Below, in pieces: positions 2,859-37,571 of a stretch of 46,037 bases of DNA; the stretch's first letter is position 1, and each line of letters starts with the position of its first letter. The notes under the pieces are model-generated. The model worked only from the letters and a program-made list of their open reading frames with translations. It was not told the origin of the DNA and searched no databases. Source of the stretch: Candidatus Micrarchaeota archaeon (lineage in GTDB: Archaea; Micrarchaeota; Micrarchaeia; Burarchaeales; JAKAKT01); contig CAZYPB010000002.1 in assembly GCA_964649265.1 (NCBI GenBank), forward strand, positions 1 to 46,037, written 5' to 3'. Position numbers and translations under genes: made by a program.

Positions 2859-4013
2859 CTATTTTTTCCTTTTGTTTTTGTCTAAACGAGTTTTAATCCC
2901 CATTATTTTTTCCAATTCAACGCTCATTTTTTCAGCATTAAAATCAGTATACGTTCCCTCAAGTTTCTTTTTTTTCTCGTATGATAGTGCCGCCCGTTCC
3001 AGATCCTCATATTCCTCGTGAGGCACCTCACAGACCTTACTCACCTTTTTCTCCACCTCCGAATTCTTTGATGCACGAACAGCATCCATTATCTTGTTCT
3101 TTCTCTTTTCATTGCCCATATCGAAGACAAGAAACTCGCTGTTTTCCAACTCTGATACCGACCTAAGCCAATCGATATTCTCACTCACAAGCCTTCTGAA
3201 GAGGTGCTGATCCTTTACCTTTCTCTTAAGCAGTTTCATCTCCATGTCTGCCATCTCAAGAATCTCCTCCGGCTGCTCCTTCAATCCGGAGATCTTAAGA
3301 AAATCTTCGAATTCATCAAAAGAAAGCATATCCTTTGGTTTTGGAAAACCAAGCTCAAACAACCCGGGGTCAGAAGAGCTAACAGATACAAGTTTCAGTG
3401 CTGGCGTTTTCTTTAGTTTTGAAATTTGCTCTTCTCTCCAGCTACTATAAACATTTAGCAAAGAGGTTATCTCATCGTATCTCTTCTTTTTTTTCTCAAG
3501 GTCATCTATGCTTCGAATTTCCTTAAGTTCATAAATACTATCCTTTAGTGAATCTATTTTCGTGTCAATAACCTTTTCTATTTCATTTAGTTGATCATCT
3601 ATTCTGGCCATCTCTGAGAAGAGGGTCTCAAGTTCTTTAAGTTCTCCCAGAACTGATTTCGCTTCTCTGAATTTCTTTACCTTTATGTGTTCCATTGCTT
3701 TTCCGAGAATTTTGGAATGGCTCTCCTGGAGCTCCTTTTTCTCATAGAGTCCGTTTATCTCATTGACAATTCTCCAGAATTCCCTTCCAACCTTCTTTAC
3801 CTTTCTTGAGAATTTTATCTTTGTTGCTATGTCTCCCTTTTCAACGTCTTCAGTTCTTCCATCAAGTGTTTCCATATTTCCTATTAGTTCCCTTATCCTT
3901 CTACAGATATCAAGTGCTTTGTAGGCCTTACTCCCCCCGGTCTCCTCTATCCGTTTCTCAAGCGCAGACTTATCATTAATCAGTCTATCTACTTTTGTCT
4001 TAAGCTCATCCAT
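2859..4013 (-). CDS. Hypothetical K/E-rich coiled-coil protein (384 aa), last gene of the folate operon
   Basis: Long ORF with heptad-like charged composition and no motif I recognise. Its start is 8 nt after the purN stop on the same strand. Plus-strand ORFs in this span are short shadows. Confidence 0.6.
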   Translation of the reverse strand: MDELKTKVDRLINDKSALEKRIEETGGSKAYKALDICRRIRELIGNMETLDGRTEDVEKGDIATKIKFSRKVKKVGREFWRIVNEINGLYEKKELQESHSKILGKAMEHIKVKKFREAKSVLGELKELETLFSEMARIDDQLNEIEKVIDTKIDSLKDSIYELKEIRSIDDLEKKKKRYDEITSLLNVYSSWREEQISKLKKTPALKLVSVSSSDPGLFELGFPKPKDMLSFDEFEDFLKISGLKEQPEEILEMADMEMKLLKRKVKDQHLFRRLVSENIDWLRSVSELENSEFLVFDMGNEKRKNKIMDAVRASKNSEVEKKVSKVCEVPHEEYEDLERAALSYEKKKKLEGTYTDFNAEKMSVELEKIMGIKTRLDKNKRKK

Positions 4014-33927: not shown

Positions 33928-35157
33928 ATGGGAAAGACATACATAGATACTGTAAAATATTTGGTTTACGCAAATGTTGAGATCGGAGGACTTGTTGAGA
34001 AACCCGATGTTGTGGGCGCTATATTTGGTCAAACAGAGGGGCTTCTCGGCGATGAACTAGATCTAAGGGAACTGCAGAAAAACGGAAGAATAGGCAGAAT
34101 AGAAGTAGACCTTAAGGGAAAAGGAGGAAAAAGCATTGGAAAGATTCTCCTCCCGTCAAGTCTGGATATGGTAGAAACAAGCATACTTGCTGCTGCTCTT
34201 GAGACAGTTGACAGAGTAGGACCATGTGATGCTAAGATTGCAGTTGAGAAAATAGAGGACACAAGGAATCTAAAGAGGAAGACAGTTGTTGACAGGGCAA
34301 AGAACCTGCTCAAGAATCTGCTTACAAATGAGATACCTGAGAGCAAGGAGATATCCGATATAGTGAGACAGGAGGTTAAGATAGCAGAGATTAGTACATT
34401 CGGATCCGAGAAGCTTCCGTGCGGTCCACATATAGCTTCATCCGAATCAATAGTTATTGTTGAGGGAAGAGCCGATGTGCTTAATCTACTGAAGAATGAC
34501 ATAAACAATGTCATTGCAGTTGGCGGAGCAAATGTCCCGAAAGCAATAGTCGGTCTCTCAAGAGAGAAAGAGGTAACCCTGTTCCTTGATGGAGATAGGG
34601 GCGGAGACATAATCCTAAGAGAGCTCTCGGAAAATGTTGAGATCGATTTCGTGACCCGGGCACCACATGGGAGAGAGGTTGAGGAGCTATCGCGAAAAGA
34701 GATAATAAAGTCTCTAAGAAGCAGGATACCATACGAGCAGATTAATGGTTCAAGGCCAAGAAAGGACCAGCCTTCCATGAACCAGATATCCGACAGGAAC
34801 AAGAGGTTAAATGGGAATGGAAGAAAGCCTGAACCGATTGCAGAGAAGCCAAAGGCATCAAACGATGTCCCAACCAGTCCGCCCGATGCTCTTCTAAAGA
34901 GCCTTGATGAACTGGAGAACACCCTGAGGGCTAGGATATACGGTAAGGACATGAACCTTGTTGAGGAACTGCAGGTAAGGGATCTGATAAAGAAGATGGG
35001 TGAATTAAAAGAAACCCATGCAGTGGTCTTCGATGGGATAATAACCCAGAGACTTGCAGATCTTGCTGACAAGAAAGGAACCAAGATGCTCATTGGAGTA
35101 AGAAGCGGGAACCTATACAAAAGACCGGATAGGATGCTTATCTACACAAAGAAGTAG
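33928..35157 (+). CDS. dnaG: Archaeal DnaG-type primase / exosome-associated Toprim protein
   Basis: MGKTYIDTVKYLVYANVEIGGLVEKPDVVGAIFGQTEGLLG is the conserved archaeal DnaG N-terminus. Toprim motifs IVIVEGRADVLNL and LFLDGDRGGD. The ATG at 33928 follows SD AAGGTGA (33917-33923). Confidence 0.9.
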   Translation: MGKTYIDTVKYLVYANVEIGGLVEKPDVVGAIFGQTEGLLGDELDLRELQKNGRIGRIEVDLKGKGGKSIGKILLPSSLDMVETSILAAALETVDRVGPCDAKIAVEKIEDTRNLKRKTVVDRAKNLLKNLLTNEIPESKEISDIVRQEVKIAEISTFGSEKLPCGPHIASSESIVIVEGRADVLNLLKNDINNVIAVGGANVPKAIVGLSREKEVTLFLDGDRGGDIILRELSENVEIDFVTRAPHGREVEELSRKEIIKSLRSRIPYEQINGSRPRKDQPSMNQISDRNKRLNGNGRKPEPIAEKPKASNDVPTSPPDALLKSLDELENTLRARIYGKDMNLVEELQVRDLIKKMGELKETHAVVFDGIITQRLADLADKKGTKMLIGVRSGNLYKRPDRMLIYTKK

Positions 35158-35205
35158 ATAACCCCTTCCTTCTATTTTTTATTATTTCTTGATTTAAACT
35201 AGTTT

Positions 35206-36630
35206 ATGCAATTTAAAACAACCAAAGATGTAGTGCTGTCCAAAGACCCTTTAGATGCAATAATAGGTCAGGATGAGGTTGTTAAGATTGCGCGCGCAGT
35301 TTCAAAACAAAAGAGAAACCTATTACTTGTAGGCCCACCAGGAACTGGAAAGAGCATGATTGCCCAGGCAATAGCCTACTTACTTCCAAGACCAAATCAA
35401 GAGATATCCATACTGCAGAATTTCGATAATCCTGAGAGGCCGATTGTTGAGATAAGGGACAGGACAAAGATAGAGGGACAGGTCAAGAAAAAGAAGGCAT
35501 CAGGGAAGATCCTTAGTCCATCACAGGTGCCTGTTTTTGTTGCAGAGAGGCTCGGATTCAGATGCAGAAGATGCGGCAATATCTCCGATTATAAGATACA
35601 GGTTTGCTCATCATGCGGTGCTGACAAATACAGGAAAGCCTCAACACCATTCGATGATTTGCTCTTTGGTTTCCAGAGCGAGGTTCTTGAGGAGAGAGTG
35701 CACACAACCCGATCTTTTCCAGACGGAAGAGAGGAGATAATGGTCTATGAGAGAACAAAGGAGGGCAAGATCGTATCATATGATCAGCGTTCACTTAAGG
35801 ATCTGGAAAAAGGACATACCCGAAGACCAAGGAAGATAATTGTTCCACTGAACAGGAAACCATTTGTTCATGCAACTGGGGCAAGTGAGACAGAACTTCT
35901 TGGAGACATAAAACACGATCCATATGGTGGGCACCCCGAGGCAGGTATTGCTCCATATCAGCGAGTTGTACCTGGAGCAGTACATGAAGCACATGAAGGA
36001 GTTTTATTCGTAGACGAATTATCTACACTTGGGTATTTACAGCGATATCTTCTAACAGCAATGCAGGAGAAGCGCTTTTCAATAGTGGGGAGAAACCCAT
36101 CAAGCACAGGTGCTGCTGTAAAAGTAGAGAACGTCCCATGCGATTTCATTCTCATAGGCGCAATAAACACCAATGATATGCCTAACCTACTTCCGCCTCT
36201 GAGGTCCAGAATAACGGGCAATGGTTATGAGGTCCTTGTAAATACCACGATGCCCGACACTGAGAAGAACAGGGAATCCGTTATTCAGTTCATTTCTCAG
36301 GAAATAATAAAGGATGGCAAGATACCCCATGCAGACTATGAGGCAGTTCAGCTTGTAATTGCAGAATCTCGAAAACGGGCAAGAGAAATAGACAATGTTG
36401 CAGGACTAACACTTAGATTAAGGGATCTCTCTGGCATTGTTAAGCTTGCAGGAGACATGGCGTGCATAGAGGGATCAGAGACAATAACTGCAGAGTACAT
36501 AAAGGCTGCGATTAAGAAAGGAAGGACAATAGAGCAACAGATTAATGATAAATACGGAAGTTGGTACAAGGCAGAGATGAGCGATTACCATTATAAACAA
36601 AACAGTTCAGATAATAAAGAAGTCGGATAA
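35206..36630 (+). CDS. LonB-like AAA+ ATPase lacking the membrane anchor and the protease domain, with zinc-ribbon insert
   Basis: Walker A GPPGTGKS, PFVHATGASETELLGDIKHDPYGG, Walker B GVLFVDEL, LLTAMQEKRFSIVG, RSRITGNGYEV, TLRLRDLSGIVKLAGD. All are LonB-like from memory. The ORF ends where the Lon protease domain would begin. CxxC-x10-CxxC lies at 35563-35616. Confidence 0.8.
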   Translation: MQFKTTKDVVLSKDPLDAIIGQDEVVKIARAVSKQKRNLLLVGPPGTGKSMIAQAIAYLLPRPNQEISILQNFDNPERPIVEIRDRTKIEGQVKKKKASGKILSPSQVPVFVAERLGFRCRRCGNISDYKIQVCSSCGADKYRKASTPFDDLLFGFQSEVLEERVHTTRSFPDGREEIMVYERTKEGKIVSYDQRSLKDLEKGHTRRPRKIIVPLNRKPFVHATGASETELLGDIKHDPYGGHPEAGIAPYQRVVPGAVHEAHEGVLFVDELSTLGYLQRYLLTAMQEKRFSIVGRNPSSTGAAVKVENVPCDFILIGAINTNDMPNLLPPLRSRITGNGYEVLVNTTMPDTEKNRESVIQFISQEIIKDGKIPHADYEAVQLVIAESRKRAREIDNVAGLTLRLRDLSGIVKLAGDMACIEGSETITAEYIKAAIKKGRTIEQQINDKYGSWYKAEMSDYHYKQNSSDNKEVG

Positions 36631-36646
36631 GGGGCCCGTAGTCGAG

Positions 36647-36677
36647 TGTCCTTCTGTTATCCCAGGAAGACCGACAA
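36647..36677 (+). other. Non-canonical tRNA intron in the D loop (between nt 15 and 16), 31 nt, HBh'-type bulge-helix-bulge
   Basis: A 4-bp helix GTCG (36641-44) : CGAC (36672-75) is followed on each strand by a 3-nt bulge (AGT 36645-47; AAT 36676-78). The h' stem is 36648-56 : 36663-71 (9 bp, one mismatch, one GU). Cleavage 2 nt into each bulge restores the AGUGGUUUA D loop. Confidence 0.75.
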
Positions 36678-36700
36678 TGGTTTAAGACGCCACCCTTACA

Positions 36701-36778
36701 AATTGCTCCGGCAGGCGAAACTGCCTTTCAGACATCATGGACGCTGAGAGGTATCGGAACCCGCCGGAGGGTTCTGAT
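36701..36778 (+). other. tRNA intron at the canonical 37/38 position, 78 nt (junction ambiguous by 1-2 nt because of flanking A residues)
   Basis: It must be removed to join loop CTTACA to A-GGTGG. It contains a 7-bp internal helix (36706-12 : 36763-69) and an alternative GGCAG/CTGCC hairpin (36710-25). I could not draw a strict BHB by eye. Confidence 0.65.
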
Positions 36779-36817
36779 AGGTGGAGATCCGGTGTTCGAT
36801 TCACCGCGGGCCCACTG

Positions 36818-36823
36818 TTTTTT
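36818..36823 (+). terminator. Oligo-T tract, probable archaeal terminator for the tRNA
   Basis: TTTTTT begins 4 nt after the discriminator base. Confidence 0.5.
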
Positions 36824-36881
36824 CAACAACGTTAAAACACTATTTATTAATACTTAAGACGAATGTACTTTGGTGAACCTT

Positions 36882-37571
36882 ATGTCTAAAGAGGATGTAG
36901 ACTCGATGCTAATAACTGCCGCTCTTGGAGAGGAGCTCCAGATGGTTGAGACATATTCAAAGGTTAGAGATGCATCAAATGATCCAGTTGTAAAGAAGAC
37001 ACTTGATATACTAATAAATGATAGCAGAAAGCACGCAGTAATCATATCAGATCTTGTTCTAGACATCTCATCCAAATATTCATGGGAACTTGATGATATA
37101 GACAAGAAAGTCGCCCAACAGATATCCGATAGCACGCAGTTTACACTTTCAAAAGAGACAACAGAATGGTACACAAAAAAGGTGCAGGCAATAGCACTGA
37201 AGGCAAGCGAAGAGCCATTGAATGTAAGAGAGGCAAACGACCAAGCAGTTGTATCTGCCCTTGAGATGTTTATAGGTTCCGAGAGGACAGCATTCGCAAT
37301 ATACAAGGTTCTTATTTCGAAGGTAGCAGAAGAGACAAAACAGGCCATAGAAAAGATAATGGATGATGAGATAAGGCATGCAAACATGCTTAATAGACTA
37401 ATCTGGCAGGTAAAATCAGGAGAGAAGGAACCCGAGGCAGATGCAATTAAAAAAGAGGAACCATTCAACATCCTGTATTGCACAGTGTGTATGAAGGTTT
37501 ATGGAGATGACCTAAAGAAATGCAATGCCTGTGGGGGCCAAATAAAGGAACTACTTTCAGACAAGAAATAA
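36882..37571 (+). CDS. Ferritin-like/rubrerythrin-like four-helix-bundle protein with C-terminal zinc ribbon
   Basis: Two-fold internal repeat. The second half has E...DEIRH (ExxH); the first half has only E...DSRKH. C-terminal CTVC...CNAC. ATG at 36882; TATA-like TTTATTAATA at 36843-36852. The opposite-strand 209-aa ORF is Ser-rich shadow. Confidence 0.55.
   Translation: MSKEDVDSMLITAALGEELQMVETYSKVRDASNDPVVKKTLDILINDSRKHAVIISDLVLDISSKYSWELDDIDKKVAQQISDSTQFTLSKETTEWYTKKVQAIALKASEEPLNVREANDQAVVSALEMFIGSERTAFAIYKVLISKVAEETKQAIEKIMDDEIRHANMLNRLIWQVKSGEKEPEADAIKKEEPFNILYCTVCMKVYGDDLKKCNACGGQIKELLSDKK

Follow-up and report, generated by a model that had tools for sequence, protein, structure and literature searches.

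The question raised by this locus is whether an interval of DNA that standard scans pass over holds a transfer RNA (tRNA) gene interrupted by two introns. It lies at 36632-36814 (+) in a stretch of a metagenome-derived Candidatus Micrarchaeota contig; this stretch, 46,037 nt in its entirety, is referred to here as the window. An initial annotation had read the interval as tRNA-Val(UAC) split by two introns, and when 36647-36677 (31 nt) and 36701-36778 (78 nt) were taken out of the 183-nt genomic gene, the remaining 74-nt sequence was indeed called tRNA-Val(tac) by ARAGORN. On its observed structure, motifs and conservation, we consider the interval very probably a Micrarchaeota (DPANN) tRNA-Val(UAC) gene with two introns, which the splicing endonuclease EndA would remove. 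The gene reads GGGCCCGUAGUCGAG, 31 nt, UGGUUUAAGACGCCACCCUUACA, 78 nt and AGGUGGAGAUCCGGUGUUCGAUUCACCGCGGGCCCA in that order, with exons of 15, 23 and 36 nt:

36632-36646 (+): exon 1, 15 nt, tRNA positions 1-15, with the 5' strand of the acceptor stem, U8 and A9, the 5' strand of the D stem (GUCG), A14 and G15
36647-36677 (+): intron 1, 31 nt, at D-loop position 15/16, relaxed HBh' form
36678-36700 (+): exon 2, 23 nt, positions 16-37, with the remainder of the D loop including G18 and G19, the 3' strand of the D stem and G26
within 36678-36700 (+): anticodon part of exon 2, with the 5' strand of the anticodon stem, C32, U33, U34, A35, C36 and A37
36701-36778 (+): intron 2, 78 nt, at the canonical position 37/38
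36779-36814 (+): exon 3, 36 nt, positions 38-73, with A38, the 3' strand of the anticodon stem and the variable loop AGAUC
within 36779-36814 (+): 3' part of exon 3, with the T arm CGGUG-UUCGAUU-CACCG, the 3' strand of the acceptor stem and A73

The spliced tRNA-Val carries U8, A14, G18 and G19, U33, A37, the T loop UUCGAUU and A73. All features expected of a tRNA-Val(UAC) are present, namely a 7-nt anticodon loop with UAC, U33, a purine at 37, a short variable loop, A73 and orthologues accepted by a covariance model. CCA is absent from the DNA of the gene. Every arm had been described as perfect in the initial annotation; this does not hold for the mature D stem, which consists of three Watson-Crick pairs and G13.A22 in the window as in all orthologues. 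Each intron boundary may be shifted by 1 nt (T/T at intron 1, A/A at intron 2) and the product is unchanged. The 15:48 tertiary pair covaries, being G15:C48 in the window and in the orthologous locus L001 and A15:U48 in seven other orthologues, so that the covariation of position 15, the last of exon 1, with position 48 fits the 5' cut site of intron 1.

We then considered the inserts separately. With the 31-nt insert alone removed, ARAGORN again called this tRNA and placed a 78-nt intron behind its anticodon; with the 78-nt insert alone removed, it reported no tRNA. In the unspliced window no tRNA was found by ARAGORN without its intron option or by Rfam, either at the gathering threshold or at E <= 1, and ARAGORN run on the raw DNA with introns allowed gave a spurious tRNA-Gly(ccc) with a 101-nt intron. 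The ARAGORN check proposed in the initial annotation thus accepted the spliced 74-nt sequence, the raw DNA being missed or miscalled. The minimum-free-energy fold of the 183-nt precursor contained the acceptor stem, T arm, anticodon stem, the GUCG:CGAC helix, the AGU bulge and the inner hairpin, with a z-score of -3.46 and equally good folding in none of 200 shuffles. A purpose-written search for a T arm followed by an acceptor stem, run over both strands of the 46 kb, gave no candidate tRNA besides this gene, and neither insert has a group I or group II core: they are only 31 and 78 nt long and Rfam matches none.

For intron 1, a D-loop intron at 15/16 with a 4-bp helix GUCG:CGAC and 3-nt bulges had been proposed, and both the precursor fold and a frame check (a 4-bp helix, a bulge of 3 nt on either strand and a cut behind the second nucleotide of the bulge) confirmed this geometry. 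GUCG at 36641-36644 pairs with CGAC at 36672-36675 in four of four positions, and the bulges are 36645-36647 (AG|U) and 36676-36678 (AA|U), with the cuts two nucleotides into each. The inner stem, formed by 36648-36656 with 36663-36671, had been given as 9 bp, a figure that has to be corrected to three plus five pairs around one C.A mismatch. The strict hBHBh' bulge-helix-bulge (BHB) arrangement is not found here: the inner stem is present and the outer helix is absent, which makes intron 1 a relaxed HBh' form, as the initial annotation had stated and the frame check agrees. A passage in PMC3239211 assigns this relaxed form to (alpha-beta)2 or epsilon2 enzymes.

On its own, the relaxed helix-bulge motif is not significant, as dozens of matches per 150 nt occurred in the same scan. 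Because it is so common by chance, the weight of the argument falls on the restored cloverleaf, on an orthologue with joined exons, and on conservation and covariation in other lineages. We used the upstream Lon-like AAA ATPase gene (474 aa), whose best homologues are in Micrarchaeota assemblies, as an anchor and compared the region downstream of it in ten further lineages; tRNA-Val(UAC) follows the same ATPase gene in all ten. The 3' exon occurs exactly once in the species-representative genome set, in L001, a Candidatus Micrarchaeota metagenome-assembled genome, where 36 of 36 nt are identical; the locus is syntenic with the window and its flanking coding DNA is ~75% identical. When a common cutting rule was applied to nine sequences, the window included, tRNA-Val(tac) was returned in 9/9. 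Introns were distributed over three sites as follows:

Window: 31 nt at 15/16, 78 nt at 37/38, none at 59/60
L001: none at 15/16, 77 nt at 37/38, none at 59/60
L010: 28 nt at 15/16, 33 nt at 37/38, none at 59/60
L004-7: 44 nt at 15/16, 36 nt at 37/38, none at 59/60
L002/3: 19 nt at 15/16, none at 37/38, 45 nt at 59/60
L008: 27 nt at 15/16, none at 37/38, 33 nt at 59/60
L009: 26 nt at 15/16, none at 37/38, none at 59/60
L011: 39 nt at 15/16, none at 37/38, 28 nt at 59/60
L012: none at 15/16, none at 37/38, 30 nt at 59/60
L036/37: 45 nt at 15/16, none at 37/38, none at 59/60
L038: no intron at 15/16, 37/38 or 59/60

At least one intron is present in 10 of the 11 lineages, in differing combinations, and L038 alone is intron-free. 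The third site, in the T loop (28-45 nt in L002/3, L008, L011 and L012), is unoccupied in the window; its motif is a strict BHB in L011 and L012 and has one mismatch in L002 and L008. The Rfam tRNA model (gathering score 29 bits), with which orthologues were scored, gave full-length matches of 55.8 bits for L009 (15/16 intron only), 54.1 bits for L001 (37/38 intron only) and 66.2 bits for the intron-less L038. The window therefore combines two types of insert, each of which is singly accepted by the model in an orthologue. No further copies of either intron were found elsewhere in the window or in the compared loci. In L038, a 118-nt match to the Rfam tRNA model (3415-3532 (+), 55.3 bits) ~600 nt downstream of the intron-less tRNA-Val marks another intron-containing tRNA gene.

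The orthologues bear directly on the 15/16 site. Cuts two nucleotides into the bulges had been predicted to give the required junction, and in L001 (GUCGAG|UGGUU) and L012 (GUCGAA|UGGU), where intron 1 is absent, the exons are joined exactly at this position. The initial annotation had also proposed looking for 15/16 introns in relatives, and these are present, at 19-45 nt, in seven other lineages (L002/3, L004-7, L008, L009, L010, L011 and L036/37). All eight intron-bearing lineages, the window included, have the central helix GUCG:CGAC, or CGGC giving U.G, and share the bulges A-R|N and A-A/G/C|Y. The central helix was paired in 100% of cells (six distinct orthologue sequences), and all of the first four inner-stem pairs showed two-sided changes (G-C/A-U, C-G/U-A/A-U and others). 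In total, 93.8% of cells were paired, and the observed pairing or covariation score was reached by 0/500 shuffles; sliding the partner strand by 1-3 columns reduced pairing to 14-46%. Judged by covariation, intron 1 is apparently a maintained intron under selection.

Intron 2 occupies the canonical BHB position, with the anticodon stem as outer helix and an inner stem that begins at intron nucleotide 2 in all lineages. Its central helix, 36695-36698 (CUUA) against 36773-36776 (UCUG), is paired at two of four positions (C32-G, U33.U, U34.C, A35-U), and the bulges are 36699-36701 and 36777-36779. The inner stem joins 36702-36704 to 36770-36772 and, after a G bulge, 36706-36712 (CUCCGGC) to 36763-36769 (GCCGGAG). 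The initial annotation had been unable to fit this intron to a strict BHB, and the half-paired central helix bears it out; we tried both a strict BHB and a 38/39 register, and neither yields four central-helix pairs. From its sequence, intron 2 appears to be of the relaxed and not the strict BHB type. Homologues of 77, 36 and 33 nt are present in L001, L004 and L010; the short introns of L004 and L010 correspond approximately to inner stem plus loop, and the long forms (the window, L001 and the metagenome contig L029 discussed below) gain an inner helix. The inner stem is 95% paired in five sequences, mainly with one-sided G-C/G-U changes. The 3' half (36738-36778) is strongly conserved and the 5' half poorly so; the intron contains the sequence block GAGGTATCGGAA-N(0-2)-CCCGCCGGAGGGTTCTGA. 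A C/D-box guide RNA within intron 2 was also considered and rejected, as there is no C box (RUGAUGA), only CUGA near the 3' end, and no Rfam match at E <= 1.

Several observations weigh against a gene with two spliced introns. The alignments used for pair counts were trimmed in the motif's own frame and are biased towards the structure, although the slid controls and the compensatory changes at 15/16 are still clear despite this. The imperfect central helix of intron 2 (C-G, U.U, U.Y, A-U) recurs in 5/5 sequences (window, L001, L004, L010 and L029), and when this intron is folded alone its 3' end can form a local 10-bp hairpin, AUCGGAACCC/GGGUUCUGAU, in competition with the long-range inner stem. 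Finally, a Pfam scan of the 40 open reading frames (ORFs) of the window gave no splicing endonuclease (EndA) domain within the window.

Putative signals for expression flank the gene:

36591-36597 (+): TATA-like box TTATAAA, 35-41 nt upstream of the mature 5' end, putative archaeal promoter
36818-36823 (+): T6 run, 4 nt after A73, likely archaeal transcription stop

A TATA-like box lies at the same distance in the seven orthologues in which the tRNA abuts the ATPase gene, and L011 and L012 have such boxes within their spacers. We infer that the box in the window is the promoter of the tRNA gene. TTATAAA falls inside the ATPase reading frame, at conserved C-terminal Tyr-Lys codons (TAT AAA), and the tRNA starts 1-2 nt after the ATPase stop, so that coding sequence and putative promoter would overlap. 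T-rich tracts are also found 3' of the gene in L004, L008 and L010, and the T6 run may act as a terminator.

For transcription, cleavage, ligation and the type of enzyme we infer the following course. Transcription would start from the TATA-type promoter in the end of the upstream ATPase gene and yield a precursor of 183 nt plus a short leader. In this precursor the D-stem strand GUCG would pair with the intron copy CGAC rather than with its mature partner AGAC, creating the central helix, two bulges and the inner hairpin, and intron 2 would be held in the standard frame between anticodon stem and inner stem with its central helix half mismatched. EndA would cut two nucleotides into each of the four 3-nt bulges, an RtcB-type ligase would join the three exons into the 74-nt tRNA, and CCA would be added later. 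As both substrates appear relaxed, a broad-specificity enzyme would be needed, of the epsilon2 kind as in Micrarchaeum, and by this analogy we predict that the organism has a broad-specificity splicing endonuclease.

Known systems provide close parallels. In the same phylum, 56% of the tRNA genes of ARMAN-2 (Candidatus Micrarchaeum acidiphilum) are disrupted according to a passage in Fujishima et al. 2011 (PMC3239211), including non-canonical and double introns and the 59/60 site, and its three-unit epsilon2 endonuclease is described there as cutting, in vitro, motifs of both the strict and the relaxed type. Multi-intron tRNAs of ARMAN-1 and ARMAN-2 are listed in a review of 2014 (PMC4033280), and broad-specificity epsilon2 endonuclease is published for ARMAN-1/2 only (PMC3239211, PMC4033280). 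ARMAN-2 (PMC3239211; Hirata et al. 2012, PMC3488258) thus shares with the window the phylum, non-canonical and multiple introns and relaxed BHB motifs, and the 59/60 site of L002, L008, L011 and L012 is the one tested in vitro for ARMAN-2 tRNA-Cys. In contrast, the examples in the cited text of PMC3239211 are T-loop and 37/38 introns, whereas the window has one in the D loop at 15/16. A D-loop intron is known from Aeropyrum pernix pre-tRNA-Thr(UGU), where it is cut by a broad-specificity EndA (Hirata, Kitajima & Hori 2011, PMC3241643). As proposed here, removal is by EndA alone and a broad-specificity enzyme is needed, the strict A. fulgidus enzyme hardly cutting; however, A. pernix is a crenarchaeon with an (alpha-beta)2 enzyme and its D-loop intron is a canonical BHB, whereas that of the window is without an outer helix.

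Thermoproteales, with their multi-intron tRNAs and the turnover or transposition of introns (Sugahara 2008; Fujishima 2010, as summarized in passages of PMC4090602 and PMC4033280) resemble the present case in having 2-3 introns per gene, in intron presence that differs among close relatives, and in related intron sequences in different contexts. They differ in belonging to another phylum; here the variation concerns three fixed sites (15/16, 37/38 and 59/60) of one orthologous gene, and no intron copies were found in other tRNA genes, this locus only being examined. The Haloferax volcanii tRNA-Trp intron, described in a passage of PMC4090602 as containing a C/D-box guide RNA, is likewise long, conserved in sequence and located at 37/38, but the intron of the window is without a C box and has no Rfam match of snoRNA type. 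The non-exhaustive list of non-canonical positions in that review (PMC4090602) is without 15/16; we do not claim the position as new. The gene of the window is a new, well-documented example of a phenomenon known in this phylum since 2010-2011, and not a new kind of element.

The other genes of the window are archaeal housekeeping genes, among them those for an Hjc resolvase, a DnaG-type Toprim protein, anaerobic ribonucleotide reductase and folate enzymes. The initial annotation had taken the split gene as a lineage marker, and this is borne out: the window's proteins and synteny are those of Micrarchaeota, a phylum published as having highly disrupted tRNA genes (PMC3239211, PMC4033280). Elsewhere in the window, a weak match to snoR25, a C/D-box snoRNA family, was seen at 2877-2943 (-) (31.5 bits against a gathering score of 50, E = 0.38); it lies in AT-rich DNA (28% G+C), overlaps the 3' end of an ORF at 2859-4013 and is probably due to chance.

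Among rival explanations, the one that survives best concerns the origin of intron 2 and not its function: the intron would be spliced, but it would have begun as DNA of an integrative element for which tRNA-Val serves as attachment site, or have been spread by such DNA. When metagenomes were scanned with an 18-mer of intron 2, 22 matches were obtained, of which 21 were chance matches in unrelated, mostly GC-rich coding DNA; the sole genuine one was L029 (metagenome contig Ga0124853_1325401, 1818 nt). On its minus strand, at ~227-380, L029 carries an 83-nt sequence homologous to intron 2, with CTTACA before it and GCC-CTTACA-AGGTGGAGATCC after it, then a diverged, partial tRNA-Val T arm and acceptor; there is no 5' exon. 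The first CTTACA lies 6 nt from the start of a frameshifted, decayed tyrosine-integrase-like ORF. L029 has the appearance of an integration junction within an intron-bearing tRNA-Val. We had also considered it as the 3' half of a split tRNA, a reading that was downgraded, as the alignment keeps the 5' junction of the intron and an integrase remnant stands in place of the 5' exon. The 3' half of intron 2 is ~95% identical between window and L029 and ~94% between window and L001, against ~75% in the flanking coding DNA of window and L001, and the poor conservation of the 5' half also favours an element origin.

Further traces of integration are found downstream of the gene in related loci, where L002 and L009 carry, 90-125 nt beyond its end, a 19-nt direct repeat of the tRNA 3' end (TCGATTCACCGCGGGCCCA):

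L002, 4670-4688: 3'-end repeat (gene end 4562)
L003, 2745-2763: 3'-end repeat
L009, 3097-3115: 3'-end repeat (gene end 3025)

G-run/C-run hairpin sequence lies between the repeat copies, and on their sequence the repeats resemble the remnant of an element integrated at the tRNA 3' end. The L002 repeat is intron-less, although the 59/60 intron of the gene falls inside that sequence. L001, L002 and L009 have in common a short TTSCGAACC tract after the gene. The use of tRNA genes as attachment sites of archaeal elements, with introns as protection, has been discussed by Randau & Soll 2008 (as cited in passages of PMC4090602 and PMC4033280); the L029 integrase remnant abutting anticodon-loop sequence and the 3'-end repeats of L002 and L009 agree with this idea, with the difference that they belong to related loci and not to the window.

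Against an element origin of intron 2, L029 contains an additional GCCCTTACA for which simple site-specific recombination does not account, and the integrase call rests on weak, below-threshold Pfam matches (E = 0.03-0.07), a protein search with the fragment having returned no homologue, only the fragment itself. Viral contigs were scanned three times without a match, the queries being the conserved intron 2 block, the anticodon junction after splicing and the 3' end of the tRNA, and a metagenome scan with a 26-nt T-arm/acceptor sequence gave 0 matches. No element or integrase adjoins the gene of the window, whose downstream flank looks native, matching L010, and the 33-36-nt introns of L004 and L010 fit vertical descent with an internal insertion or deletion. 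We consider such an origin unlikely. Taken together, these data suggest that integrative elements target this tRNA-Val and may carry the intron along, a possible but unproven connection. That such elements convey the 37/38 intron, perhaps together with the 3' part of the gene, from one Micrarchaeota genome to another seems to us rather improbable; equally doubtful is the route it implies, in which the attachment site of the element would be an intron-bearing copy of the tRNA-Val 3' portion, and integration and recombination would install or replace the intron of the host. Such travel would explain the high identity of the intron 3' half relative to the window/L001 flanks, the L029 integrase remnant, and the repeats and tract.

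A second rival holds that the locus is a decaying pseudogene, a former tRNA-Val with two junk insertions that is no longer processed. The failure of standard scans to call the gene and the poor central helix of intron 2 would agree with this, but all stems and universal nucleotides are intact, eight further lineages retain, at the syntenic locus, a gene interrupted in this manner whose intron stem shows compensatory changes, and the promoter-like and terminator-like signals are conserved. In addition, genomes of the phylum are small, and the published examples in a passage of PMC3239211 are mostly disrupted yet functional tRNA genes. We regard a pseudogene as very unlikely. That the inserts arose by an assembly artefact or mis-join, as might be suspected of a metagenome-derived contig, is barely credible, since an independent Logan assembly (L035) of the public read set SRR7048221 is identical across the gene and matches 34919-37080 with one mismatch, at 35937, outside the gene, and homologous inserts occur in many independent assemblies. 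The tRNA-Gly(CCC) with a single intron that ARAGORN reports on the unspliced sequence can be dismissed with near certainty, as it entails a D arm with defects, a bulge in the extra arm and an intron at a non-standard position. It leaves the perfect Val anticodon arm out of account, and orthologues without one or the other insert contradict it.

A two-intron tRNA-Val(UAC) gene, as we read the locus, has consequences for the organism and its relatives. It may be the only decoder of GUA codons in the genome, and as it is missed by ARAGORN and Rfam in standard mode and miscalled as tRNA-Gly with introns allowed, automated annotation of this and related genomes would report a missing tRNA-Val. Eleven lineages in which introns come and go at three sites of one orthologous gene form a compact natural dataset on intron gain, loss and structural constraint, and one that lies outside the Thermoproteales. 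The intron copy linked to an integrase hints that introns and integrative elements are connected and, if the intron does travel with such elements, this would provide a concrete mechanism, at the level of DNA, for the gain of archaeal tRNA introns.

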